Shown: in pieces, positions 1-13,747 of the stretch
How positions within the stretch are numbered: position 1 is the stretch's first letter
How the letters are laid out: each line of letters starts with the position of its first letter
NCBI GenBank assembly: GCA_046485285.1
Contig: JAWOHE010000089.1
Location: 32,449-96,448 of the forward strand
Direction: 5' to 3'
DNA: 64,000 bases
From: a bacterium
GTDB taxonomy: Bacteria; Hydrothermota; Tepidihabitantia; Tepidihabitantales; Tepidihabitantaceae
Position numbers and translations under genes: made by a program
The notes under the pieces: generated by a model
Seen by the model: only the letters and a program-made list of their open reading frames with translations
The model's database searches: none
Told to the model about the DNA's origin: nothing

Positions 1-38
1 GGCCGCCTGCTGCTCAAGGTCCTGCTCTAGGGGCGGCG

Positions 39-1229
39 ATGCGCTGGTTGCTGCTGTCAGCCGTCCTGCTCGCGGCCGGGTGCTACTACCCGGCCTACTA
101 CCCGCCGGCCGGCGCGAGCTCGGCCCCGGCCGCGGACCGGCCCGAGGTCGTGCTGGCGGGCGGGGAGGGCACCGAGGTGCTGGCCGAGGGCGCGGGGGCA
201 ATCACCGTCCCGGGCGGGATCGACATCGCCCGCGACGCCGCGGTCTCCGACGCCCTGCGCAAGGCCGTCGAGCAGGGCGTCGGCACGTTCATCGACTCCG
301 AGACGCGGGTCGAGAACTGCCAACTGCTGTCCGACCGCATCTACTCGAAGTCGCGCGGCTACGTGTCATCCTACCGGGTCGTCACCGAGAGCCGGGACGA
401 TGGGCTCTACCGCGTCGTGGTCCGGGCGAAGGTGCGGACGAGCGACATCGAGAACGACCTCGCGGCAATCGGCATCCTGCTCCGCGAGCAGGGCCGGCCG
501 CGACTGATGGTCGTCGTCCGCGAAGTGCCGTCGGGCCCGGACCGGGGCGGCGGCGACCCGGCGATGCTCGAGACGATGCTCATCGACGCGTTCCAGGGCC
601 GGGGCTACCCGGTCGTCGACGCGGCGACGGTCGCCCGGAACATCGAGAAGGAACAGCTCCGGCTGATCCTCGAGGGCGACGACCGGACCGCGATGCTGGT
701 CGGAATGAAGACCGGCGCGGAAATCGTCGTCGCGGTCACGGCCGAGCGCTCGGTCGCGAGCCGGGTCATCGCCGGCACGGCGCGCGAGGTCTACCGGTTC
801 CGGGTCAGTGCCCGGGCGGTCAACGTCGAGAGCGGCGAGGTGCTGGGCGCGACGGCGCCGACGGTCGAACTGCCCTTCAGCGAGGACGAGGCCCGGCGCC
901 GGGCCGCGGACACGACGAGCGCGGCGCTCATCAGCCGGATTCTCGGCGGCTGGACCCGGCGCGAGAACGTCACCATCATCCAGGCGTCGAACGCGACCTT
1001 CGAGCGGGTCCAGCAGCTCCGGGACGAGGTCCGCGCGAAGCTCCGCGGCGTGACCCAGGTCATCAGCCGCGACCTGACCGGCAGCGCGGCGACGCTCGAG
1101 GTCGTCTCGGAGGCCTCGTCGCAGGAGGTCCTCGACGGACTCAGGACGCGAGGCATCGCGGTGCCGTTCGAGGTGCTGGGCCTGGCCGGCAACCGCATCG
1201 AAATCAGGTTCACCGGGGGGGCGGAGTGA
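39..1229 (+). CDS. hypothetical lipoprotein (signal peptide, LAAGC lipobox)
   Basis: 396-aa ORF. N-terminus MRWLLLSAVLLAAGC is typical of a lipoprotein signal. Globular alternating hydrophobic/charged composition. The stop overlaps the next start (GTGA). Confidence 0.55.
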   Translation: MRWLLLSAVLLAAGCYYPAYYPPAGASSAPAADRPEVVLAGGEGTEVLAEGAGAITVPGGIDIARDAAVSDALRKAVEQGVGTFIDSETRVENCQLLSDRIYSKSRGYVSSYRVVTESRDDGLYRVVVRAKVRTSDIENDLAAIGILLREQGRPRLMVVVREVPSGPDRGGGDPAMLETMLIDAFQGRGYPVVDAATVARNIEKEQLRLILEGDDRTAMLVGMKTGAEIVVAVTAERSVASRVIAGTAREVYRFRVSARAVNVESGEVLGATAPTVELPFSEDEARRRAADTTSAALISRILGGWTRRENVTIIQASNATFERVQQLRDEVRAKLRGVTQVISRDLTGSAATLEVVSEASSQEVLDGLRTRGIAVPFEVLGLAGNRIEIRFTGGAE

Positions 1230-2002
1230 GACGCGCGGCCGCGCTCGGGCTCGTCCTGCTCGCCGGGCTCGCCTGCGAGGACGGCTGGGAGACCCTGCTC
1301 GTCACCGCCCAGGTCACCCGGACGTTGGGGGTGCCGAGCAACACCGCCTCGGTGCTCATCGGCAAGGTCAGCCTCGTCAACGTCTTCTCGGACGACTGGC
1401 TCGAGACGCCGGACCCGGGCGACTCGACCTTCTGGCACCACGACCCGCTGCCGGCGCGGGTGACGCCGGTCGGCGAGGCGACGGTCCGGGTCGGCGACCG
1501 GTCGGTCGGCCAGCGCCTGCCCGGGGTCTACTTCCAGGCCGCGCTCGACCTCCGGTTCAAGGAGCGTTACGACCTTACGATCGAAACCGATGAGGGCAAG
1601 AGCGTTTCGGGTCGCGCCTGGCTGCCGGACAGCTTCGCGGTGACCGCGCCGGGCCAGGGCGCGACGCTCGACCCGGACTCGGTCCGGGTGACCTGGACCC
1701 GGTCGGACAGCGCGCACAGCTACATCGTCGCGGTCAACCCGGTCGACACGCTCAACCCGGCGCAGGGCTGGGCCGACGGGCTCACCGACACGACCTGCCT
1801 CGTGCCGCGGGCGGCGTTCGAGGACACGCTCGGCGGGCTCGCGCCGGGCGTCTTCTACGTCACGGTCAGCGCCATCAACGGCGGCTGGAAGAAGAGCACG
1901 CTCGACCTCCTGCTCGCGGGCGGCAACCTCACCGGCGCGGCCGGGACCTTCGGCTGCGCGACGATGCCGCCGCCGGTGCTCTTCACGGTCCGGGAACTCT
2001 GA
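1226..2002 (+). CDS. hypothetical lipoprotein, Ig/FN3-like
   Basis: GTG start overlaps the upstream stop. N-terminus VRRAAALGLVLLAGLACE (lipobox LAGLAC). Beta-rich segment '...VRVTWTRSDSAHSYIVAVNP...'. The track's longer 80..2002 frame has a non-protein-like N-terminus. Confidence 0.5.
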   Translation: MRRAAALGLVLLAGLACEDGWETLLVTAQVTRTLGVPSNTASVLIGKVSLVNVFSDDWLETPDPGDSTFWHHDPLPARVTPVGEATVRVGDRSVGQRLPGVYFQAALDLRFKERYDLTIETDEGKSVSGRAWLPDSFAVTAPGQGATLDPDSVRVTWTRSDSAHSYIVAVNPVDTLNPAQGWADGLTDTTCLVPRAAFEDTLGGLAPGVFYVTVSAINGGWKKSTLDLLLAGGNLTGAAGTFGCATMPPPVLFTVREL

Positions 2003-2026
2003 GCCGGGCGACCGCCGGCGCGGCGG

Positions 2027-2845
2027 TCAGCGGACGATGCGGCCGATGCGGCCGGGGCGGATGAGCCAGGGCGACAGCACGATGCGGGCGATGTTGGGCG
2101 GGTTCGACACCGCCGCGGACGAGAAGTACAGCACCAGCGGCTTGCCCCGGACGTAGGCGAGCGGCAGCGGCCCCCAGAACCGGCTGTCCTCGGAGTCGTC
2201 GCGGTTGTCGCCCATCATGAACAGGTGGCCGGGCGGGACGACGACCGGGCCGAAATCGTCGCGGACGTAGGGCGAGAGCCGGGTCCGGAAGAACCGGTCG
2301 TCCTCCCACGAGCGCTGGAAGCCGGCCGGCCGCGGTTCGAGGCCGGGCAGGCGGCGGTAGTCGCCGTGGCTGACGTAGCGCTCGGACTGGAGCCGGCCGT
2401 TGATGAAGAGCTGCTTGTTGCGATAGGCGACGGTGTCGCCGGCGACCGCCACGCAGCGCTTGACGAAGTTGTTCGGGATGTACCACTTGAGGGTCTGGGC
2501 CTCGCGGTCCCACCAGACCGGCAGGAGCGGGAGCCGCTCAGGGAAGATGCGGACGAACCGGCCGGCGGGCTCGGGTACGTCCGGCTCCTGGGGGAAGCGG
2601 AAGACGACGATGTCGCCGCGCTTCGGGTTCGTGACCGGGATTATCGTCCGGTGGGTGAAGGGCAGCTTGACACCGTAGATGAACTTGTTGACGATCATGA
2701 AGTCGCCGACCTGGATGGTCTCGAGCATCGAGCCGGTCGGGACCATGAAGCTCTCGACGAGGAAGCTCCGGATGATAAGGACGGCGACAATGACCGGCCC
2801 CCACTCGCGGGCCAGCCGGACGAAGAACGAGCCGATGCGCTTCAT
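2027..2845 (-). CDS. lepB: signal peptidase I (S26 family)
   Basis: 272 aa. N-terminal TM segment; 'PTGSMLETIQVGDFMIVNKF' (catalytic Ser box), 'RGDIVVFRFP', 'GDNRDDSEDSRFWGPLP' (box E). Classical LepB motifs. Confidence 0.9.
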   Translation of the reverse strand: MKRIGSFFVRLAREWGPVIVAVLIIRSFLVESFMVPTGSMLETIQVGDFMIVNKFIYGVKLPFTHRTIIPVTNPKRGDIVVFRFPQEPDVPEPAGRFVRIFPERLPLLPVWWDREAQTLKWYIPNNFVKRCVAVAGDTVAYRNKQLFINGRLQSERYVSHGDYRRLPGLEPRPAGFQRSWEDDRFFRTRLSPYVRDDFGPVVVPPGHLFMMGDNRDDSEDSRFWGPLPLAYVRGKPLVLYFSSAAVSNPPNIARIVLSPWLIRPGRIGRIVR

Positions 2846-2918
2846 CAGAAAAACGGGCGGCTATCCGCCTCCCTGAGGATAGACCAGCCGCGGCCGCAGT
2901 CAAGCCGGGCCGGCGGGG

Positions 2919-2946
2919 TTGACCCGCGAGCCGGGGCGGCTAGCCT
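2919..2946 (+). promoter_or_regulatory. sigma70-like promoter (TTGACC-N16-TAGCCT) upstream of the 2968 gene
   Basis: Read directly. The same TAGCCTGTT -10 context recurs at 14911. Confidence 0.3.
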
Positions 2947-2967
2947 GTTGCGCCGGGCACAACCGCA

Positions 2968-3618
2968 ATGACGACGTATCGCAGGCTCGAGCTCACCTGC
3001 CCCTGCTGCGGGGCGAAGTTCGAATCGACGACCTTCAACACGACCAACACCTTCGGGCCGATCTCGACCGAGTTCCAGCAGTTCGCGGTCGGCGCCTCGC
3101 CCCTGCCGCTGGTGATGCACGCCTGCGACGCGTGCGGCTACGCGGGCTACGAGACCGCGTTCGAGGCCGGGATGGTCGACGACGAGCTCCGGACGTGGGT
3201 CGGGCGCGAACTCACCCCGCGCCTCGCGCCGGGCGGGCGGCTCGGGGCCGGGGAGAGATACGCCCACGCCGCGATGATCGCCGGCCAGCGCGGCGAGGGC
3301 CCGGAGGCGGTTGCCGGCCTCTACCTCGCCGCGGCCTGGTGCGGCGGGCCCGGGGCGACCGACCACCGGCGCGAGGCGGCACGATGGTACGAGCGGGCCT
3401 TCGCCGAAGAATCCCTCCCGGCGGACCGGCAGGCGATCACCGCCTACCTCATCGGCGAAATCCACCGCCGCATCGGCAACCGGGCCGAGTCCGCGGCCTG
3501 GCTCGGCCGCGTGCCCGCCATCGCCGGCAACCGGCCCGAGCTCGCCGGGCTCGTCCGGCTCGCCCGCCGCCAGCTCGACGAACCGGGCGACTACATCACC
3601 CCGCCGGCTGACCGCTAG
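2968..3618 (+). CDS. zinc-ribbon protein with TPR-like C-terminus (DUF2225-like), hypothetical
   Basis: 216 aa. CPCC...(45 aa)...CDAC treble-clef-type pairs, then a helical repeat region (YLAAAWCGG...ITAYLIGEIHRRIGN). Confidence 0.5.
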   Translation: MTTYRRLELTCPCCGAKFESTTFNTTNTFGPISTEFQQFAVGASPLPLVMHACDACGYAGYETAFEAGMVDDELRTWVGRELTPRLAPGGRLGAGERYAHAAMIAGQRGEGPEAVAGLYLAAAWCGGPGATDHRREAARWYERAFAEESLPADRQAITAYLIGEIHRRIGNRAESAAWLGRVPAIAGNRPELAGLVRLARRQLDEPGDYITPPADR

Positions 3619-3634
3619 CACGCGCCCCTTCCCC

Positions 3635-3830
3635 TTGACTGCCCGGGCCTGACCGCTATGCTGGCGCACGATGATCAGGGCTCTCGCGCCCGACTCGCTC
3701 ATGCGGCTGGTCGAGACCTTCGACCGCAACCTCGCCACGACGGACAAGCAGATTGACGCGCTGGTGAATGAGGTGTATGGGCTGACGGAGGGGGAGATGA
3801 GGATTGTAGAATGTGCTGACCGCTGGGCGC
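3635..3830 (+). repeat. copy 1 of a ~190-bp unit carrying a promoter-like box plus a C-terminal tail remnant of an RM/BREX-type N6 DNA methyltransferase (…IDALVNEVYGLTEGEMRIVE)
   Basis: About 80% identical to 17010..17200 (ATGCTGGCGCACGATGATCAGGGCTC... shared). The encoded tail matches the characteristic ...idrLVyelYgLTeeEikiVE C-terminus of type IIG/BREX PglX-like methyltransferases. ORF 3671..3943 covers it. Confidence 0.5.
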
Positions 3831-3960
3831 GGCGGGCAGGTGCGTGTCGCGCGACTATGGCGACCGTGGCCGGGTCCAATTGGGGGGACTGCGGCAAGGC
3901 AACGCCCGGACCGTCGGCCCCGGGTCGCCGGGTAGTTGCGTGACAGACCCAGACCTTTAG

Positions 3961-4197
3961 CAGACTGTAATCACGGCGTCTGAGGTCAACCGGTACTTCT
4001 ACTGCCCGTACGCGTGGTGGTACGGGGACCGTGAGGTGGGGGCGGAGCGGAGGAAGCAGTTGAGGCGCGGACTGGACTATCACGCCCGGGTGGCCGGGTC
4101 CGCCGCCGCGCCGGCTCGCTGGGGCAGGCTGTTGCCCATCGCGGCCGTCGCGCTCGCGGCCGTCGCAATGGTCCTGCGCTTCTTCGGGGTCTGGTGA
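3961..4197 (+). pseudogene. N-terminal fragment of a Cas4/DUF83-like PD-(D/E)XK nuclease (ITASEVNRYFYCPYAWWY motif) lacking a canonical start codon
   Basis: Open frame after TAG 3958-3960 encodes QTVITASEVNRYFYCPYAWWYGDREV.... No ATG/GTG/TTG precedes the Cas4-type YxYCP motif. It ends TGA 4195-4197, overlapping GTG 4194 of the next ORF in another frame. Confidence 0.35.
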
Positions 4198-4742
4198 TGG
4201 CCGGCTACATCCTGCTCATCCTGGCCGGGCTCTGCCTGCTGTTGTGGCTTGCCCTGCCGCTCGTGTTCCCGCGTCGGGTCGCGGGCCTTCCACACGGCGA
4301 GGTTGTCTATTCCGGCCACGACAGCCGCGCAGAGTCCCTGCACGCGCCCGGCTTCGGCCTCTCCGGCAAGCCGGATTACGTCGTCAGGCAAGGCGAGGAG
4401 CTGGTCCCGGTGGAGCCCAAATCGGGCCGGGCTTCGAAGAAGCTGTACGACTCCGTCAGGATGCAGGTCATCGCGCAGGCGCTGCTGGTCGAGGCCGAGT
4501 TCGGGAAGCGCCCGACCCACGGCCTCGTCAAGTACCCGACGCGGACCTATAGGGTCGACGTGACGCCGCAGGACGTTGCCCGGCTCGAGGAAGCGCTCCA
4601 GGTGATGCGCCACGCCCGCGAGACGGGCATGGCACCAGACGCGCCGACGCCCCGGCACCTCTGCCCGACCTGCACGCGCGAGGCGTGTCCGAAGCGGGCC
4701 GGAGACAGGCAAGCAGCTCGCTCAACCCGCCCGACATCCTGA
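4194..4742 (+). CDS. PD-(D/E)XK nuclease, Cas4/DUF83-like C-terminal part (TM N-terminus, D..E.K core, CxxCx4C cluster)
   Basis: 182 aa. 'GKPDYVVRQGEELVPVEPKSG' (D-E-K), 'QVIAQALL' (Q motif), C-terminal 'CPTCTREAC'. Together with the upstream fragment this reconstitutes the 4-Cys Cas4 arrangement. Confidence 0.5.
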   Translation: MMAGYILLILAGLCLLLWLALPLVFPRRVAGLPHGEVVYSGHDSRAESLHAPGFGLSGKPDYVVRQGEELVPVEPKSGRASKKLYDSVRMQVIAQALLVEAEFGKRPTHGLVKYPTRTYRVDVTPQDVARLEEALQVMRHARETGMAPDAPTPRHLCPTCTREACPKRAGDRQAARSTRPTS

Positions 4743-4794
4743 CCCGCCAAACGGCGTCCAAGACCCGGCGCTTCTTGGCCTGAATCCTGACCGA

Positions 4795-4920
4795 GACCCC
4801 TAACCCCTATCCCCACCCGCATCCCCGGAGCGGTCCCCGGGGCGGTCCCCGGGGCCGTCCCCGGGGCGGCCCCCGGAACCGTCCCGGGGATATCCCCGGG
4901 GATATCCCCCCCTGCCGTCA
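4795..4920. repeat. GC-rich tandem 12-nt repeats (CCGGGGCCGTCC-like) plus 'ggggataggggtgggg' core; reverse-complement relative of 33540..34060
   Basis: Direct reading shows cccctatccccacccgcatccccgg then (cggtccccgggg)n, ending ggatatccccggggatatcccc. ORF 4547..4921(-) is only its translation. Confidence 0.6.
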
Positions 4921-5296
4921 AAGCCCAGCCGGTGTGCGACTTACGTTTCGGTGCCCAAAAAGGGTCCTGCGAGCGTCTCCTGCCCGACTACCCAGGGAGG
5001 GACTTGGCCCGAAGGTGCTGGCTGGGTCCGCCGCGACGTCTTCAGAGTCGCGGCCCGGAGGCGGAGGAGGGGAGAAACGACCTCTGACGTCAGATTGCCG
5101 AGGCGCATTGCAGAAGGAGAGGGATTTCAGGGGGTGTGTGCGAGGACAATGGCGCGGACTGGAGGCAAAGATACAGAGGAAGACGAGCGCGGAACGATGA
5201 GCGATGAATTCTGGACCATGGACCATGAACGACTGCCTGCACGGGTCGGAAAGGGATTTCTCCACATCGAACCGGAGAAACACCAAGACACAAAAA

Positions 5297-5325
5297 CCCG
5301 GCGCGGCGCGCCGGGAGTCCTCAGG
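5297..5325 (-). terminator. rho-independent terminator-like hairpin (CCCGGCGCG-GCG-CGCGCCGGG) followed by a T-run on the minus strand
   Basis: Plus strand reads acaaaaaCCCGGCGCGgcgCGCGCCGGGag; on the minus strand it is a stem followed by TTTTTGT. No annotated minus-strand gene is upstream. Confidence 0.4.
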
Positions 5326-5447
5326 ACGAATAAGGCCTCTTCCTCTTACCCACGCCGAAGGCGCGGTTTCACGGCGGCCCAGGCCACCGGGCTCCTGGTG
5401 CCTTGGCGGTTGGTCCTGCCCGGCCGCGGCGTGGAGGCGGCCGGGGC

Positions 5448-5476
5448 TTGACAGACGAGGCCGGGGCAGGAAGATG
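5448..5476 (+). promoter_or_regulatory. candidate promoter TTGACA-N17-AAGATG for the 5482 operon
   Basis: Strong -35 but weak -10. The downstream ATG at 5482 is preceded by AGGAAG. Confidence 0.25.
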
Positions 5477-5481
5477 GTAGG

Positions 5482-5700
5482 ATGAGCACGGCGCGCGCAC
5501 TCCTGCTGGCGCTGGTCCTCGAGGCGGCCGAGACGCCGGGACGGACCACTTTCCGCAAGCGGAAGTCGGACTATTTCGCGACACTCTTCCTCCTGCCGCA
5601 GGACTACGAGCTGTTCGGGCTGGTCGAGGCCGAGGACGGGCTCGACCTCCTGTGGCGGCCGACCGGCGCGCAGAGGCCGGCAGGGGCGGCCGGGCGATGA
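5482..5700 (+). CDS. small hypothetical protein (72 aa), first gene of the caspase-like operon
   Basis: ATG 5482. Its stop overlaps the next ATG (ATGA at 5697-5700). N-terminus MSTARALLLALVLEAA. Confidence 0.4.
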   Translation: MSTARALLLALVLEAAETPGRTTFRKRKSDYFATLFLLPQDYELFGLVEAEDGLDLLWRPTGAQRPAGAAGR

Positions 5701-6284
5701 GCGCGCCGCAGAAGTGCTGGCCCAAGCGGATCTTCTGCATCGAGGGCAACTGGGACGATAACCTCGCGACGACGAACTCGGTCCGGCCGGTGCTCGACCT
5801 GCTCGAAATCAACGCCGGGGTGAAGTACATCTACCGCGACTGCTCGACGCTCGAGGAGATCGAGTTCCTCGTCGACAAGTGGCGGCAGAAGGGCTACGGC
5901 GAGTACCGGATTCTCTACCTGGCGTTCCACGGCCGGGCGGGCGAGATCCGCATCAGCGGCCGCGCCTGCCTGACGCTCGAGGCGCTGGGCGAGCGGCTGG
6001 ACGGCCGGTGCCGCAACCGGCTGGTCTACTTCGGCGCGTGCTCGGTGCTGAGCGTGCCGGTGAAGCGGTTGCGGCGATTCCTCGACGCCTCGGGGGCGAA
6101 GGCGGTGTGCGGCTACAAGACCGAGGTCGACTGGATGAAGTCGACGGCGCTCGACCTCGTCGCGATGAGCGAGCTGCAGCGGCACGCGATGACCCGGGCC
6201 GGGCTGGCCGCGGCCGAAGCGGCAATCCGCCGGAGCACGCGGGCGCTGTCGGGCGAGCTCGGGTTCCGGATGCTCTACCACTGA
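5697..6284 (+). CDS. minimal caspase/CHAT-like (clan CD) cysteine peptidase domain protein
   Basis: 195 aa from ATG 5697. Clan-CD order and motifs: beta strand RIFCIEGNW; 'YRILYLAFHGRAGEI' (His-Gly); 'RNRLVYFGACSVL' (Ala-Cys after a hydrophobic strand, compare caspase KPKLFFIQACRG); 'AKAVCGYKTEVDW'. Confidence 0.55.
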   Translation: MSAPQKCWPKRIFCIEGNWDDNLATTNSVRPVLDLLEINAGVKYIYRDCSTLEEIEFLVDKWRQKGYGEYRILYLAFHGRAGEIRISGRACLTLEALGERLDGRCRNRLVYFGACSVLSVPVKRLRRFLDASGAKAVCGYKTEVDWMKSTALDLVAMSELQRHAMTRAGLAAAEAAIRRSTRALSGELGFRMLYH

Positions 6285-6287
6285 GCG

Positions 6288-6515
6288 ATGGCGCGGCCGG
6301 TTAGGGACCCGGAGCAGGAGCGGGGCGAGCGCATCCTGCGCGAGATGGCGCGGCTCGAGCGGCGCCTGCCCGAGACCCGGTACTGGCGGTGGCTGCCCTG
6401 GCTCTTGACCGCGCTGGTGCTGTTCGCGATCCTGTTCGTGCTCATGTCCAACACCGAGACGTTCCGGCTGGCCTGGACCCGGCTGGCCCGGCCCGACTCC
6501 CTGCCCGGGCGCTGA
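6288..6515 (+). CDS. small single-TM protein (75 aa)
   Basis: Starts 3 nt after the upstream stop. Charged N-terminus, then WRWLPWLLTALVLFAILFVLM. Confidence 0.5.
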   Translation: MARPVRDPEQERGERILREMARLERRLPETRYWRWLPWLLTALVLFAILFVLMSNTETFRLAWTRLARPDSLPGR

Positions 6516-6555
6516 ACCCAGGCCCGGCCCGGGCGGGTTCCCTGCCGCCGGTTCA

Positions 6556-6680
6556 TTTGACTTGACTCGGCCGCAGGATATCCTGAAGGCGTTCAGGGGG
6601 CCTGAAAGACGGCCCTGCGGCTTGTCCGTCAAGCCGTCGTTTTCAGAGTCGTTTACCCGGCAACGGCGGTCGCTCTGAAT
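6556..6680 (+). ncRNA. candidate short leader/sRNA: TTTGAC-N17-TATCCT promoter followed ~80 nt later by hairpin CGGCTTG-tccgt-CAAGCCG + TCGTTTTC
   Basis: Read directly from sequence. No ORF present. Lies 150 nt upstream of rocA. Confidence 0.2.
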
Positions 6681-6824
6681 CGCCGGAGTTCCCGGCGCAA
6701 GCGAAGCGCGCCCGAACGGGCCGCGCCGCGGCCGCGCGAGCTGTCCCCGGACAGCAGCCCGGAGTCAATAATAGCCGTTGCGATAAGTTGAAGCCGTAAG
6801 CCTAACCTTATTGCAGGAGGCGCA

Positions 6825-8369
<1,545 letters not shown>

Positions 8370-8395
8370 GCGCGCACCCGGAGAGGAGCAAGCCA

Positions 8396-9745
8396 ATGCC
8401 GAAGCGCAAGCGCGTCATCATCGTCGGCGCGGTCGGGATGGACTACCACGTCTTCAACACCTGCTTCCGGGACCGCGAGGACCACGAGGTCGTCGCGTTC
8501 ACGATGGCGGCCGAGCAGAACCTCGGGACGACCGGCGGGCTCCGGCCTTACCCACCGAGCCTGGCCGGCCGGCTCTACCCGAAGGGCATCCCGACGGTGT
8601 ACGAGCACGAGCTCGGGCGGAAGGTCGCGGAGCTCGGGGCGGACGAGGTGGTCTTCGCCTACTCCGACGTGAACTACGTCTCGCTGATGAACTTGGCGGC
8701 CGAGGCGCTGGCGGCCGGGGCGGACTGGCGGCTGATCGCGCCGCGGTTCACCCAGCTCAGGGCCGGGAAGCCGGTCATCGCGGTCTGCGCGGTCCGGACC
8801 GGCTGCGGCAAGAGCCAGACGTCGCGGCGGGTCTACGAGGTCGTCCAGGGGCTCGGGCGCAAGCCGGTCGCGGTGCGCGAGCCGATGCCCTACGGCGACC
8901 TCGAGAAGATGGTCTGGCAGCGGTTCGCGAGCTACGAGGACCTCGACCGGGCCGGCGCGACGATCGAGGAGCGCGAGGAGTACGAGCCCTACGTCGAGAA
9001 CGGGATGGTCATCTACGCCGGCGTCGACTACGCGGAAATCCTCCGGCGGGCCGAGGCCGAGGCCGACGTCATCGTCTTCGACGGCGGCAACAACGAGGTG
9101 TCCTTCTTCCGGCCCGACCTGCTCATCGTCGTCACCGACCCCCTGCGCGCCGACCACGGCACCCAGTACCACCCGGGCGAGGTCAACCTCCGGATGGCCG
9201 ACGTCGTGGTCATAAACAAGGAGGACTCGGCGACCAAGGCGCAGGTCGCCGAGGTCGAGCTGAATGCGCTCCACGTCAACCCGGGTGCGGTCATCGTCCA
9301 CGCCGACTCGCCGCTCGAGGTCGCCGACCCGGCGGCGATCAGGGGCAGGCGGGTGCTGGTCGTCGAGGACGGGCCGACCGTCACCCACGGCGGGATGGCG
9401 TTCGGCGCGGGCCGGATCGCGGCCGAGCGGTTCGGCGCGGCGGCGATCATCGACCCGCGGCCGTACGCGACCGGCTCGCTTCGCCGGGAGCTCGACCACT
9501 CGACGCACCTGACCGACGTCCTGCCGGCGATGGGCTACTCGAAGGAGCAGCTCACCGAGCTCGAGCAGGCGATCAACGCGGCGGACTGTCACGTTGTCGT
9601 GTCGGGCACGCCGATTGACCTCGGCCGCATCATCAAGGCCAACAAGCCGATCATCCGGGTCCGCTATTCGCTCGCCGAGAAGAGCAGTCCCGACCTCGCG
9701 GCGCTGGTCGAGCGGAAGCTCAGGGAGCTCGGCGCGCTGAAGTAA
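8396..9745 (+). CDS. P-loop NTPase, cyclic 2,3-diphosphoglycerate synthetase-like family (assignment tentative)
   Basis: 449 aa. Walker A 'VRTGCGKSQTS'. Rossmann-like N-terminus 'RVIIVGAVGMDYHVFN'. Begins 26 nt after rocA. Confidence 0.4.
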   Translation: MPKRKRVIIVGAVGMDYHVFNTCFRDREDHEVVAFTMAAEQNLGTTGGLRPYPPSLAGRLYPKGIPTVYEHELGRKVAELGADEVVFAYSDVNYVSLMNLAAEALAAGADWRLIAPRFTQLRAGKPVIAVCAVRTGCGKSQTSRRVYEVVQGLGRKPVAVREPMPYGDLEKMVWQRFASYEDLDRAGATIEEREEYEPYVENGMVIYAGVDYAEILRRAEAEADVIVFDGGNNEVSFFRPDLLIVVTDPLRADHGTQYHPGEVNLRMADVVVINKEDSATKAQVAEVELNALHVNPGAVIVHADSPLEVADPAAIRGRRVLVVEDGPTVTHGGMAFGAGRIAAERFGAAAIIDPRPYATGSLRRELDHSTHLTDVLPAMGYSKEQLTELEQAINAADCHVVVSGTPIDLGRIIKANKPIIRVRYSLAEKSSPDLAALVERKLRELGALK

Positions 9746-9819
9746 CGCCGAGGCGGGGACAGCTGGGAAGCGAGCCCGGTCCGGCCCGGCCGGCGGCCGG
9801 TTCCCGCTGGCGCGCGGCG

Positions 9820-10311
9820 GTGACGGTCGTCGCGTGGCTGTTGATTCTCCAGGCCGGGTTCGGTGCGGCCGGCAGCGGCATCGAGTTCGCGCTCAGGCCC
9901 CTGCTCGTGCCGCCGGAGGCGCGGGCGCTCGACGTGCCGGGCGCGGAGGAGCTCGTCCCCGGCTACCGCGTCCTTTCGCCACTGGTCCGGCTGCTCGAGG
10001 CGTTGATCTGGGCCGGGCTGGCGTTCAATGCCGCGCTCCTCGCCGGCGCGGTCGGGCTGCTCCGGCGCCGGAAGTGGGGTTGGTACGCGGTCGTCGTGCT
10101 CCACATCCTCGCCGCGGGCGGGCTGTTCACGGTCCTGCCGACCGCGTTCGGCGGCGTCCTCGGGGTGGCCGCGCCTGGCGCCTCGCCGTTCCTGCCCTGG
10201 CTCCTGTCCGGCCTCGCGGTCCTGCCCGCGCTGGTGCTGATCGGTTTCCTCCTGCTCGACCCGGTCGTCGGCCAGTTCGAGGCGGGCGGCGAGCCCGCGC
10301 CGCCGGCTTGA
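9820..10311 (+). CDS. hypothetical polytopic membrane protein
   Basis: 163 aa with four hydrophobic segments. Confidence 0.45.
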   Translation: MTVVAWLLILQAGFGAAGSGIEFALRPLLVPPEARALDVPGAEELVPGYRVLSPLVRLLEALIWAGLAFNAALLAGAVGLLRRRKWGWYAVVVLHILAAGGLFTVLPTAFGGVLGVAAPGASPFLPWLLSGLAVLPALVLIGFLLLDPVVGQFEAGGEPAPPA

Positions 10312-10343
10312 CTTGGCTGATGGTTCGGGCATAGTGACGTGCG

Positions 10344-11945
10344 ATGACACGGCTACCCGAGCACGAGTACTGCGTCGTCCGGGCGCTGGAGCCGGGCGAA
10401 AGCGTGGCCCTTGACGAACTGCTTCGGCGGATCGCCGGACTGGCGTCCGCCGACGCGGCGCTGGTCGTCCAGTCGCTCTACCGGGACGACAGGAAGCTCA
10501 AGGACGCGGCGCTCGCGGACCAGGCGTACGTGATGGCGGGCGCGAAGGCCCTGGCCGACCGCGGGCTGCTGACCATCGCCGAGACGCCCGACGAGGAGTT
10601 GAGCCTGGTCGAGGACGGCGGGCTCGAGGTGGAGGAGTTCGGCCTGCCCGAGCGCCGGGCGCTGAAGAGGATTGTCGAGCACGGCGGCAAGGTGTCTTTC
10701 CAGGAACTGCCGCAACTGCTGGGCAAGGACGACGTCCGGTCCGAGGTGAAGTGGCTGACGAAGAAGGGCTGGTGTCGCCGGGACGCCGGCACGCTCGAGG
10801 CAACCGAGGCCGGACGGCAGACGCTGGGCTCGGTCGCGCAGGACGCTGATGAGCTCCTGCTGTGGGAGCTCCGTGACCACAACGCAAGGATGCTCACCTC
10901 TGAGGTCACGCGGGCGGACGTCAAGAGGGCGCTCGAGCTCCTGCGCGGCCGCGACGACATCCTGAAGAGAAGGAAGCGCACGAGGCGGACGCTGGCACTG
11001 ACCGGGCTGGGAGCCGAGCTCAAGCGCGGTGGCATCGAGCCGGCGCAGGAGGTCAGCCAGCTGACCCCGGAGCTGCTGGTTTCCGGCAAGTGGCGGGAGG
11101 TCGTGTTCAAGCCCTACGACCCGAAGCTCGAGACCGCGCCGGCCTGGCCGGGCAAGGAGCACCCGCTCCAGCGGGTCATCCAGGAGACGCGACGGGCGTT
11201 CCTCGAGATGGGTTTCGAGGAGGTCGCGTCGCCGGCGATCGAGACCGAGTTCTGGGACTTCGACGCGCTGTTCCAGCCCCAGGACCACCCGGCGCGGGAG
11301 CTGCAGGACACCTTCTACATCGCCGAGCCGGCGCAGGGCCGCCTGCCGGCCGCCGCGATCGTCGAGCCGGTGCGGCGGACGCACGAGGACGGCGGTGACA
11401 CCGGTTCGACCGGCTGGCGCTACCGCTGGAGCGCGGAGAAGGCGCGCAAGCTGGTGATGCGGACGCACACGACCGCGGCGACGATCCGCGCGCTTGCCGC
11501 GAACCCGCGGCCGCCGCGCAAGGTCTTCAGCATCGGCAAGTGCTTCCGGCGCGACGACCTCGACCAGACCCACCTGCCCGAGTTCATCCAGATTGACGGC
11601 ATTATCATCGACGAGGACGCCAACCTGGCGACGCTGTTCGGCACCCTCGGCGAGTTCTACCGCAAGATGGGCGCGAGGGAAGTGCGGTTCCGGCCGTCGT
11701 TCTTCCCCTACACCGAGCCGAGCGCGGAGGTCTACGCCAACCTGCCGGGGCTGGGCTGGGTCGAGATGTGCGGCTCGGGTGTGTTCCGGCCCGAGGTGAC
11801 CCGGCCGCTGGGTTGCGAGGTGCCGGTGATCGCGTGGGGCGGCGGGCTCGAGCGGGTGGCGATGATGCGCTACGGCCTCGACGACATCCGCCGGCTCTAC
11901 TGGTCGGACGTCGACTGGCTGAAACGGAGCGAGCTGTGCCGGTAG
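10344..11945 (+). CDS. pheS: phenylalanine--tRNA ligase alpha subunit, archaeal/eukaryal type (long N-terminal winged-helix region)
   Basis: 533 aa. Class II aaRS core: 'HPLQRVIQETRRAFLEMGFEEV', 'FQPQDHPARELQDTFYI', 'RTHTTAATIRAL', 'GKCFRRD', 'EFIQIDG', 'GWVEMCGSGVFRPEV', 'AWGGGLER'. Confidence 0.85.
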   Translation: MTRLPEHEYCVVRALEPGESVALDELLRRIAGLASADAALVVQSLYRDDRKLKDAALADQAYVMAGAKALADRGLLTIAETPDEELSLVEDGGLEVEEFGLPERRALKRIVEHGGKVSFQELPQLLGKDDVRSEVKWLTKKGWCRRDAGTLEATEAGRQTLGSVAQDADELLLWELRDHNARMLTSEVTRADVKRALELLRGRDDILKRRKRTRRTLALTGLGAELKRGGIEPAQEVSQLTPELLVSGKWREVVFKPYDPKLETAPAWPGKEHPLQRVIQETRRAFLEMGFEEVASPAIETEFWDFDALFQPQDHPARELQDTFYIAEPAQGRLPAAAIVEPVRRTHEDGGDTGSTGWRYRWSAEKARKLVMRTHTTAATIRALAANPRPPRKVFSIGKCFRRDDLDQTHLPEFIQIDGIIIDEDANLATLFGTLGEFYRKMGAREVRFRPSFFPYTEPSAEVYANLPGLGWVEMCGSGVFRPEVTRPLGCEVPVIAWGGGLERVAMMRYGLDDIRRLYWSDVDWLKRSELCR

Positions 11946-13747
11946 TCGGGATACCGGTTGAGCGGCTGGCGCGGCTCGTCGGCCGCGCCGTGCCGCGGGA
12001 GGAGCTCCAGCACGCGCTCGAGCAGCTCGGCAACGACGTCGAGGGCTACGCCCGGGTGACGCGTCACGCCTGCGGCCGGTGCGGCGGGGTGGTCGAGCTG
12101 ATGGAGCACGAGGAACTGCCGGCCGCCTGCCCTTCGTGCGGCGCCGCGGCGAGCCTCGGCGCGGTCGGCACCGACGAGGTCATCCGCATCGCGCTCCTGC
12201 CGGTGCGGCCCGACCTCTACGACGTCGCCGGGCTGGCGCGCGCACTGCGCGGCTGGTTCGGAGTCGAGACCGGCCTGCCGGCGTGGCCGGTGACCCAGTC
12301 CGGCTTCCGGGTCGACGTCGCGGCGGGAATGGCGGAGGTCCGGCCGTACATCGTCGCGGCGGTCGTGCGCCGGCTTGCGTTCGACGACGAGACGGTGCGG
12401 ATGGTGATGAAGATGCAGGAGAACCTGCACTGGGCGCTCGGCCGGGACCGGCGCCGGGCGTCGATCGGCGTCTACGATCTCGCGACGGTCCGGCCACCGT
12501 TCCGGTTCCGGCCGGTCGGGCCGGACGAGCTCCGGTTTGCGCCGCTGTTCGGCCTGCCCGACGACCCGCGCGCCCGGCTGACCCCGCGCGAGGTGCTCGA
12601 AAAACACCCGAAGGGGCAGGCCTACGCGCACCTGCTCGCCGGGCTCGCGCGCTACCCGCTGCTCGAGGACGCCGACGGCCGGGTGCTGTCGATGCCGCCG
12701 ATAATCAACAGCGACGAGACGCGAGTGACCCGGGCGACGAAGGACTGCCTGATCGACGTGACCGGCCCGGACCAGCCCGCGCTCGATGCGTGTCTTGCGG
12801 TGCTGGTGACCGCGCTCGCCGAGCTCGGCGGGCGGATCGAGTCGGTCGCGGTGCGCTACCCGGGCGGCGAGGATGTCGCGACGCCCGACCTCTCGCCCCG
12901 GCCGCGGACGCTCGACCCGGCGGCCTGCGCGCGGGTCACCGGGCTCGCGCTCTCGGCCGAGGAGACCGCCCGGGCGCTCGAGCGGATGCGCTACGGCGCG
13001 CGCGCCGAGGACGGAACGGTGCGGCTCGATGTGCCGGCCCACCGCTCGGACGTGATGCACGACTGCGACGTGTTCGAGGACGTCGCGATCGGCCGCGGCT
13101 ACGAGCGGATCCGGCCGCGGCTCGTGCCGACGATGACCGCCAGCCGGCCGCTCGCGCGCGAGGAGCTCGCGGCGCGGGCGCGGCGGGTGCTGACCGGGCT
13201 CGGGCTGTTCGAGGTGATGACGCTGGTGCTGACCAACGCCTGCGAGCAGTTCGAACTGCTCGGGGTGCCGGAGCCGGCGCACCCGGCCGTCGCGAACCCG
13301 CTAAACGTCGAGCAGGCGATGCCACGCGCGCACCTGCTGACCGGCCTGCTGGCGACTTTCCGCGGCAATGTCACCCGCGAGATGCCCCAGCGCGTGTTCG
13401 AGGTCGGCGAGTGCTTCGAGCTCGACCCGCGGGCCGAGACCGGGTGCCGGACGATGCTCAGGGTCGCGGCCGGGGTCGCCGGCCCGCGGGCGGGGTTTGC
13501 CGAGGTGCGGGCGCTGGCCGCGGCGCTGGCGCGGGAGCTGTGCGCGGAGCCGGAGTTCGAGGCGGCCGAGCACCCGGCATACATCCCCGGCCGCTGCGCC
13601 CGCATCCTCCTGCCGCGGGCCGGCCAGCGCGGGCCGGCCGGGACGGTCGGGGAAATCCACCCGCAGGTGCTCGAGAACTTCGGGCTCGGCCAGCCGGTGG
13701 CGGTCTTCGAGCTTGACCTGTCTTTGCTGGAGGTGAACGATGCCTAA
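11936..13747 (+). CDS. pheT: phenylalanine--tRNA ligase beta subunit, archaeal type
   Basis: 603 aa from GTG 11936, overlapping the pheS stop by 10 nt. N-terminus 'VPVVGIPVERLARLVG' like archaeal MPxVxxxxxdLxxLxG. B3/4 and B5-like segments. Carries an inserted CGRCGG...CPSCG zinc ribbon. Confidence 0.8.
   Translation: MPVVGIPVERLARLVGRAVPREELQHALEQLGNDVEGYARVTRHACGRCGGVVELMEHEELPAACPSCGAAASLGAVGTDEVIRIALLPVRPDLYDVAGLARALRGWFGVETGLPAWPVTQSGFRVDVAAGMAEVRPYIVAAVVRRLAFDDETVRMVMKMQENLHWALGRDRRRASIGVYDLATVRPPFRFRPVGPDELRFAPLFGLPDDPRARLTPREVLEKHPKGQAYAHLLAGLARYPLLEDADGRVLSMPPIINSDETRVTRATKDCLIDVTGPDQPALDACLAVLVTALAELGGRIESVAVRYPGGEDVATPDLSPRPRTLDPAACARVTGLALSAEETARALERMRYGARAEDGTVRLDVPAHRSDVMHDCDVFEDVAIGRGYERIRPRLVPTMTASRPLAREELAARARRVLTGLGLFEVMTLVLTNACEQFELLGVPEPAHPAVANPLNVEQAMPRAHLLTGLLATFRGNVTREMPQRVFEVGECFELDPRAETGCRTMLRVAAGVAGPRAGFAEVRALAAALARELCAEPEFEAAEHPAYIPGRCARILLPRAGQRGPAGTVGEIHPQVLENFGLGQPVAVFELDLSLLEVNDA

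Follow-up and report, generated by a model that had tools for sequence, protein, structure and literature searches.

Analysis of a 64,000-nt stretch of bacterial DNA (contig JAWOHE010000089.1, positions 32,449 to 96,448; hereafter the window, in whose numbering all positions are given) indicated that a compact gene cluster at 5448-6515 combines two separable parts: a small two-gene module, A-C, and between its members gene B, which belongs to the catalogued protein family DUF6642 and has a predicted caspase-like fold with a nearly invariant His/Cys pair. The cluster consists of three co-directional open reading frames (ORFs) on the plus strand: gene A (5482..5700, 72 aa), coding for a small soluble protein; gene B (5697..6284, 195 aa), whose ATG overlaps the TGA of A as ATGA; and gene C (6288..6515, 75 aa), which codes for a single-pass membrane protein and begins 3 nt past the stop codon of B. 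A preliminary description of this DNA had seen here a three-gene operon centred on a stand-alone caspase/CHAT-like protease, possibly a defence or effector module, that matched no system it could name. In our reading, B is probably an autonomous cytoplasmic cysteine peptidase of clan-CD type (Cys115/His78), which in WOR-3 bacteria lies inside an independent A-C module and shares its transcript. The fold of B and the conservation of its residues were computed, and catalysis by B is what we infer.

B was assigned to its family over its full length: residues 10-194 aligned with positions 2-182 of the 182-position DUF6642 profile (PF20347), with a score of 97 bits, well over the gathering threshold of 27 (E 1.3e-27), and the same profile was found in all 66 homologues and in all 30 aligned relatives. 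When A, B and C were searched against Pfam, NCBIfam, PADLOC and PHROGs, DUF6642 was the sole significant match, and the protein identical to B carries the NCBI name 'DUF6642 family protein'. The B protein is therefore a member of a family that already has a name. An AlphaFold2 model of B, computed with the 30 relatives as input (predicted local distance difference test score, pLDDT, 90.8; predicted template modelling score, pTM, 0.89), showed an alternation of strands and helices with six main strands (residues 12-17, 44-49, 72-76, 109-112, 136-140 and 190-194). Foldseek comparison of this model with the PDB returned SAVED-CHAT (8tl0_C) as the top match (E 7e-7, query TM-score, TMq, 0.66), and the 48 listed after it were chains of caspases throughout, from caspase-3, -6 and -7 and CED-3 to other animal caspases, with a probability of 1.00 and E values of 7e-7 to 1.5e-4 over the 50. 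Named matches in BFVD were mostly caspase, metacaspase and clostripain proteins of giant viruses and insect viruses. Structure prediction thus gave the caspase/CHAT-like fold that had been proposed for the 195-aa protein. With neither a signal peptide nor a transmembrane (TM) segment predicted, B is a compact single-domain cytoplasmic protein of ~190 aa with a predicted caspase-hemoglobinase (clan CD) fold. The best structural match overall was a 320-aa protein of Myoviridae sp. ctWaE18 (BFVD A0A8S5MXG5; E 9e-9, TMq 0.74, 17% identity), which outscored every solved CHAT or caspase structure as a match to B.

The putative catalytic residues follow two consecutive hydrophobic strands. His78 (codon CAC, 5928..5930, plus strand) stands in an FHG motif after strand 72-76 (ILYLAF-H78-G79), and Cys115 (codon TGC, 6039..6041, plus strand), 37 residues further on, stands in a GAC motif after strand 109-112 (LVYFGA-C115), which is the clan-CD arrangement. 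Residue conservation was counted over 210 members of the DUF6642 family, among which His78 and Gly79 were each present in 208 (99%) and Cys115 in all 210 (100%). The His-Gly and Ala-Cys motifs pointed out in the preliminary description therefore proved to be conserved at 99-100% among the relatives of B, the second in the form Ala/Ser-Cys, and so did the His/Cys pair itself. Other residues conserved in these members are Glu16 (98%), Trp19 (96%), Gly139 (99%), Tyr140 (91%) and Trp146 (89%); in the smaller alignment of 30 sequences, His78, Gly79, Cys115, Glu16, Trp19 and Gly139 were invariant. In the mechanism that we propose, Cys115 would act as the nucleophile, activated by His78. The two residues would sit where adjacent parallel strands end on their C-terminal side, as the catalytic dyad does in caspases and CHAT proteases, and an extended peptide would be cut in a groove lined by Glu16, Trp19, Gly139-Tyr140 and Asp145-Trp146. 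By analogy with metacaspases and paracaspases, the acidic residues Glu16 (after strand 1) and Asp145 (after strand 5) weakly suggest a P1 preference of B for Arg or Lys.

Several observations weigh against this interpretation. Profile searches of the 195-aa protein, which had been suggested as a check, were not significant for either expected family: the CHAT hidden Markov model (HMM; PF12770) scored B at only 14.2 bits (E 0.03), below its cut-off of 24, and gave any match at E<=1 in only one of 30 DUF6642 members, and the Pfam model of Peptidase_C14 matched neither B nor its 30 relatives at E<=1. Searches of PDB sequences with phmmer and with a profile of B yielded nothing significant and no caspase at E<=10. 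Alignment of DUF6642 with caspase-3 by hhalign had a probability of 2%, with FHG falling on the SHG of His121. No paper naming DUF6642 or PF20347 was found in the searchable literature, and catalysis by any DUF6642 protein is putative. In addition, we infer the spatial closeness of His78 and Cys115, and their superposition on a known dyad, from the order of strands in the model. Caspase-fold proteins are usually controlled by dimerisation, processing or a sensor domain, and no regulator is evident in the bare 190-aa domain of B.

The silence of the protease HMMs would also be expected if B kept the fold and the His/Cys pair but were not an endopeptidase at all, acting instead as a transpeptidase or ligase, as a hydrolase of the deacylase or thioesterase type, or as a redox or metal-binding protein via Cys14 and Cys138. 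Clan CD does include transamidases, such as GPI8 and the legumain ligases; Cys14 is 93% conserved, and Cys138, present in 108 of the 210 members, is more frequent there than any other residue and is invariant in the WOR-3/Acidobacteria subfamily. However, Cys138 is swapped for Ser, Val, Leu or Ile in many members, and across the family only His78 and Cys115 are essentially invariant. Moreover, the best 50 solved structural neighbours of B are all peptidases, and we consider a function other than that of a peptidase to be very unlikely.

The genetic context of B was then compared among loci. A tblastn search with A and C against 89 B-bearing loci found both genes flanking B in L006, L011 (where A is cut by the contig end), L012, L013, L014 and L023, and a later scan added the trio loci L097, L096 and L099, of which L096 and L099 look like further copies of the L013 type. 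The trio is accordingly represented by about eight loci including the window, all of them WOR-3-like, with B 56-74% identical to that of the window. The closest relatives of B lie outside this context: the B protein of L007 (78-80% identity) is followed by unrelated genes and lacks C, its upstream side being lost to the contig end, and that of L003 (75%) follows a Bat aerotolerance-type operon, with neither A nor C. On the other hand, A is directly followed by C without B in L090/L091, L092/L093, L094/L095, L100/L101, L102 and L103, at a spacing of 3-30 nt. Profile searches gave 55 clusters for the A family and 24 for the C family, consisting of proteins of ~70-80 aa, and every named one was from WOR-3. 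Since the metagenome scan with the A profile gave only 8 loci, the ratio of ABC to AC arrangements rests on about 14 independent loci.

The clearest case is L092, whose A is 88% identical to that of the window (BLASTP), which is joined directly to the window in the A+C tree (bootstrap 100%), and which shares with it the downstream genes for a 514-aa aldehyde dehydrogenase and a 449-aa protein. The DNA of L092 aligns to the window on either side of B, and B is exactly missing, as a precise B-sized indel; the junction (...TGAGCGATG...) consists of the stop codon of A, GCG and then the start codon of C. At the site of this indel the window carries a 6-bp direct repeat, TGAGCG, on the plus strand, with its left copy at 5698..5703 (the stop codon of A plus GCG) and its right copy at 6282..6287 (the stop codon of B plus GCG, right before the ATG of C). 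Both trees, that of A+C and that of B, were built by neighbour joining and have weak deep support; trio loci occur at scattered places in each. A recent foreign insertion of B was considered and rejected: its G+C content and its G+C content at third codon positions (GC3) equal those of host genes, and the trio loci are spread over both trees. Because of this scatter and of the host-like composition of B, we favour an old A-B-C arrangement, from which B was repeatedly and precisely lost, over a recent insertion, and loss is the likelier direction in L092 as well.

A-C is thus a self-standing module from which B is separable, A-C persisting without B and B without A-C, and the three genes do not co-occur wherever any of them occurs. 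The recurrence of the trio elsewhere, on which the preliminary description had made its view depend, was found in the roughly eight WOR-3-like loci but only there, and at least six lineages have A-C without B. The idea of an operon centred on the protease did not hold, since A and C are adjacent without B in these lineages, including the closest relative at the syntenic site, nor did that of a fixed three-gene set, since in by far the largest part of the family B is accompanied by neither A nor C.

A has an N-terminal helix (ALLLALVLEAA), a C-terminal beta-hairpin (GLVE..DGLDLLW) and a conserved basic stretch, RFRRRK-S/T (F-R-K/R-R-K-S/T; FRKRKS in the window); its AlphaFold2 model is poor (pLDDT 67, pTM 0.36). 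C has a conserved cytoplasmic N-terminal helix (DPExERG..IL...RLERRKR; DPEQERGERIL..RLERR in the window), one TM segment, which is its single hydrophobic segment (WLPWLLTALVLFAILFVLM; peak 19-residue Kyte-Doolittle hydropathy 2.5), and a conserved C-terminal PDS(I/L)PG motif; its identity over the trio loci is 37-51%. Neither protein had a significant match in Pfam, NCBIfam, PADLOC or PHROG, with gasdermin models included for Pfam and PADLOC. Together, A and C form a two-gene module of a small soluble basic protein and a small single-pass membrane protein.

If B has a preference for Arg or Lys, it might cut at the basic motifs of A and C, and these motifs invite a different reading of the locus as a true three-component WOR-3 unit. 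In such a unit, B would cleave A or C, for instance at the polybasic motifs (F-R-R-R-K-S/T in A; R-L-E-R-R-K-R before the TM segment in C), and cleavage would release, activate or remove C, as in a protease-gated membrane effector or signalling switch. We regard this reading as rather unlikely. It is favoured by a gene order and a tight coupling that are unchanged in at least eight loci though B is only 56-74% identical, by the one conserved promoter ahead of A, by the conserved basic motifs of A and C together with conserved acidic residues of B near its presumed S1 site, and by rough congruence of the B tree with the A+C tree, as expected after long co-inheritance, with L023 and L097 branching furthest away in each. 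Conserved order, coupling and a single promoter in at least eight diverged loci could indeed reflect a real interaction of A or C with B, and this counts against the autonomy of B. Nevertheless, A-C pairs without B in at least six lineages keep their spacing (3-30 nt) and motifs unchanged, and therefore A-C does not need B. ABC and AC loci do not differ systematically in the motifs of A and C; the closest B relatives lack C (L007, L003), and L003 also lacks A; and the rest of the DUF6642 family is without small-protein partners. Since A-C persists without B, and B occurs in hundreds of species without A or C, B would be an autonomous enzyme within the A-C pair and not the hub of an obligate three-part system.

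The wider distribution of the family was assessed by a profile search of 1.84 billion cluster representatives, which identified 1,643 DUF6642 proteins at E<=1e-3, of which 408 reached E<=1e-30; these counts refer to clusters at 50% identity. Nearly all of these proteins are single-domain and 185-210 aa long. They occur in 227 species, a lower bound with one genome scanned per species, from a dozen or more phyla, and their hosts include WOR-3, Acidobacteriota, Bacteroidota, Cloacimonadota, Verrucomicrobiota, Gemmatimonadota, Eisenbacteria and Planctomycetota. None of ten longer family members has a second Pfam domain. One of the longer proteins, P0117 (399 aa), has an extra N-terminal region of ~200 aa without a Pfam match, in which 'SIEVKTS' is reminiscent of the ExK motif of PD-(D/E)XK nucleases; P0117 may represent either an uncommon fusion or an error of gene calling.

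Examination of the neighbours of DUF6642 genes revealed little conservation. The 70 nearest upstream neighbours of B belong to 78 Pfam families, none of which is present in more than 4 of the 70 loci, and all-against-all clustering of neighbouring ORFs showed no partner common beyond lineage synteny, save for a Bat-operon link in 5 loci. No relatives of A or C were found at B loci in Acidobacteriota, Verrucomicrobiota, Cloacimonadota, Bacteroidota and other groups (~70 loci). In 58 of 70 loci the upstream neighbour points the same way as B, and in 37 it lies no more than 150 nt away; a close co-directional gene downstream is present in only 9 of 71 loci; therefore, B is typically the tail gene of unrelated operons. 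The Bat-operon link is the only cross-phylum one found for DUF6642: in L003 (WOR-3; 1-5573) and in the Verrucomicrobiota loci L036, L038, L040 and L043, the DUF6642 gene lies directly downstream of a Bat-type operon comprising VWA proteins, BatD and then a TPR-type protein (with SH3 also in L003); the window has no Bat genes. In the Acidobacteriota locus L001, a PIN-domain gene (137 aa) and a 67-aa partner (5218-5836, minus strand), which look like a toxin-antitoxin pair, are divergent beside the DUF6642 gene.

These neighbourhoods bear on the idea that this module, or the DUF6642 family as a whole, acts as an effector in phage defence or abortive infection, by analogy with proteases that activate gasdermins and with the CHAT proteases found in type III CRISPR and in CBASS. 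Its attractions are that SAVED-CHAT is the closest solved fold, that B has a patchy distribution with presence/absence polymorphism, that a Cas4-like PD-(D/E)XK gene and an apparent C-terminal fragment of a restriction-modification methyltransferase lie just upstream in the window, and that a few upstream neighbours elsewhere match PADLOC (one type I S subunit, one PtuB and some PDC candidates). However, these PADLOC matches are single cases, and A, B and C themselves have none (PADLOC-DB v2, E<=1), the only match in the cluster's surroundings being the unrelated upstream Cas4-like gene. SAVED, TPR or NACHT sensors, gasdermin, cyclase and CRISPR genes were not found next to B in 70-80 or more loci; gasdermin is absent from the 25 commonest Pfam families of upstream neighbours, whereas downstream neighbours were clustered and not Pfam-scanned. 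Moreover, the locus is syntenic beside a housekeeping aldehyde dehydrogenase gene in four diverged genomes (window, L092, L006 and L023), a stable synteny unlike that of fast-turnover defence islands, and the codon composition of B equals that of the host. By tblastn, B had no match in any of 50,697 phage records, and matches in plasmids were limited to 2 of 72,556. The defence or effector reading of the preliminary description, with neighbourhoods neither conserved nor enriched in defence genes, thus appears improbable, and the evidence gives no support to a new defence system.

The window has a G+C content of 70%, and long chance ORFs are therefore plentiful. A, B and C are nevertheless real genes and not chance ORFs, on the grounds of the PF20347 match and GC3 for B, of positional homologues and the ratio of nonsynonymous to synonymous substitution rates (dN/dS) for A and C, and of NCBI gene calls. 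The GC3 of B (0.96) is on par with that of nearby housekeeping genes, the adjoining aldehyde dehydrogenase gene having 0.97. Homologues of A and C were found at matching relative positions in other loci (tblastn E 1e-15 to 1e-19). Between the window and its nearest relative L092, dN/dS is 0.14 for A in frame and ~2 in the other two frames, and 0.58 for C, the lowest among its three frames. Annotation of the source contig by NCBI also calls A (R6X12_09100) and C (R6X12_09110) as genes. An antisense ORF of 342 aa (5604-6632) was dismissed as a shadow ORF of a high-G+C coding region. Every sequence feature listed earlier for the cluster was present: the three ORFs, the coupling of the 72-aa gene to the 195-aa gene by the ATGA overlap, the 75-aa gene 3 nt on, the motifs in the translation of B (RIFCIEGNW, YLAFHGRAG and RLVYFGACSVL) and a TTGACA box, part of a conserved promoter, ahead of the operon.

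This box (5448..5453, plus strand) is a -35-like element read in the sequence, and it is kept 28-30 nt upstream of the ATG of A in 11 WOR-3-like loci, with and without B. A weak -10-like hexamer, GAAGAT (5470..5475, plus strand), follows 16 nt past the box and 6 nt before the ATG of A; in the 11 loci the corresponding hexamers (GAGAAT, AAGAAT, GACAAT; GAAGAT in the window) lie 16-17 nt after TTGACA and 5-8 nt before the ATG. A generic promoter scan of the window did not call the A-B-C promoter, because the second hexamer of the window is weak. The position of this hexamer just before the ATG would imply an mRNA that is leaderless or nearly so, and such a transcript, beginning at A with a putative start site, is what the sequence predicts. 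From this single conserved promoter, the mRNA would start at A, and B and C would be translated by coupling through the ATGA overlap and the 3-nt spacer.

Downstream of C, a consensus scan alone indicated a weak terminator-like hairpin (6532..6549, plus strand), and L092 lacks the part of the spacer that holds it. The promoter of the aldehyde dehydrogenase gene, TTGACT-16-TATCCT (6557..6584, plus strand), was located by promoter scan and conservation, TTGAC...TATCCT being kept upstream of this gene in the window, L092, L023 and L006. Since the downstream gene has its own conserved promoter, the A-B-C unit ends after C. The aldehyde dehydrogenase gene (6825-8369) has a hairpin-rich leader of ~240 nt (region 6557-6824) with long stretches nearly identical to L092 (GGGGGCCTGAAAGACGGCCCTGCGGCTTGTCCG.CAAGCCGTCGTTTTCAGAGTCGTTTACCCGGCAACGGCG), and may have a regulatory role. 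Neither the Rfam scan of window 4700-7000, which included this leader, nor the tRNA scan of that region gave a match.

Other features lie upstream of the cluster. About 740 nt upstream of A is an orphan gene for a Cas4-like PD-(D/E)XK nuclease (4194-4742, plus strand, 182 aa) with a hydrophobic N-terminal segment, which scored 58.5 bits against a cut-off of 65 for TIGR00372 cas4 and matched PADLOC Cas4 at E 2e-16. No CRISPR-like tandem-repeat array was found in window 1-12000, and no search was aimed at cas genes. A 90-aa ORF (3671-3943, plus strand), probably a gene fragment, contains 'IDALVNEVYGLTEGEMRIVE', which we take to resemble the C-terminal motif of type IIG/BREX-type DNA methyltransferases. 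Within the 740 nt that separate the Cas4-like gene from the promoter of A there is a 12-nt tandem repeat at 4822-4909 (TCCCCGGGGCGG, ~6.8 copies, then CCCGGGGATATC twice). At 5297-5315 on the minus strand there is a strong GC hairpin with a T-tail (CCCGGCGCGCCGCGCCGGG), which is terminator-like, with no obvious minus-strand gene to its right.

With these results, DUF6642 (more than 1,600 clusters, at least 227 species, a dozen or more phyla) gains a concrete prediction, namely a caspase/CHAT-like fold with His78/Cys115. If active, B would be near the lower size limit of clan-CD peptidases, and bacteria would keep bare caspase-fold enzymes without a sensor or partner. The A-B-C cluster also illustrates that a tightly coupled operon can consist of two separable modules, which calls for caution with guilt by association, as the sister genome L092 shows, and the precise presence or absence of B inside a conserved small-gene pair amounts to a natural experiment. 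A bolder version can be formulated, in which DUF6642 is the smallest free-standing bacterial caspase-fold protease family, all of its members are active proteases with a common substrate, and B in WOR-3 cuts the polybasic linker of A or C and so switches on a small membrane effector, in a sensor-less system possibly serving stress response or abortive infection; taken as a whole, we hold this version to be quite doubtful.

Compared with known systems, B resembles its own family in size (~185-210 aa) and single-domain architecture and is a member of it, whereas its placement between A and C is peculiar to a WOR-3 subclade. With the caspases, metacaspases and orthocaspases (Peptidase_C14), B shares the six-stranded alpha/beta fold recognised by Foldseek and the HG and (Q/G)AC-type motifs. 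It is ~50-60 residues shorter than their catalytic domain, has neither a p20/p10 linker nor a prodomain, and the residues that it conserves around the presumed S1 site are acidic, not basic; in caspase-3, the His and Cys are 42 residues apart. With the CHAT proteases (PF12770; SAVED-CHAT of type III-B CRISPR, 8tl0; TPR-CHAT/Craspase), it shares the order of His then Cys after consecutive strands; the dyad spacing is 37 residues in B and 47 in SAVED-CHAT (H375/C422; bioRxiv 10.1101/2023.06.23.546230). However, the CHAT HMM alone has 289 positions, compared with the bare 195 aa of B. In the known CHAT proteases the domain is joined to a SAVED or TPR sensor, and their genes sit in CRISPR or CBASS loci, whereas B has no sensor domain and, in 70-80 loci, no cyclase or CRISPR effector as a neighbour. 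In its working B may be likened to CHAT and Peptidase_C14 enzymes, but by sequence it is a member of neither. Bacterial operons of gasdermin and protease likewise place a caspase-like protease gene beside a membrane-protein gene; however, C is a 75-aa single-pass protein and not a gasdermin, and its constant partner is A, not B. Relative to the known clan-CD enzymes, B is a shorter, sensor-less and partner-less variant.

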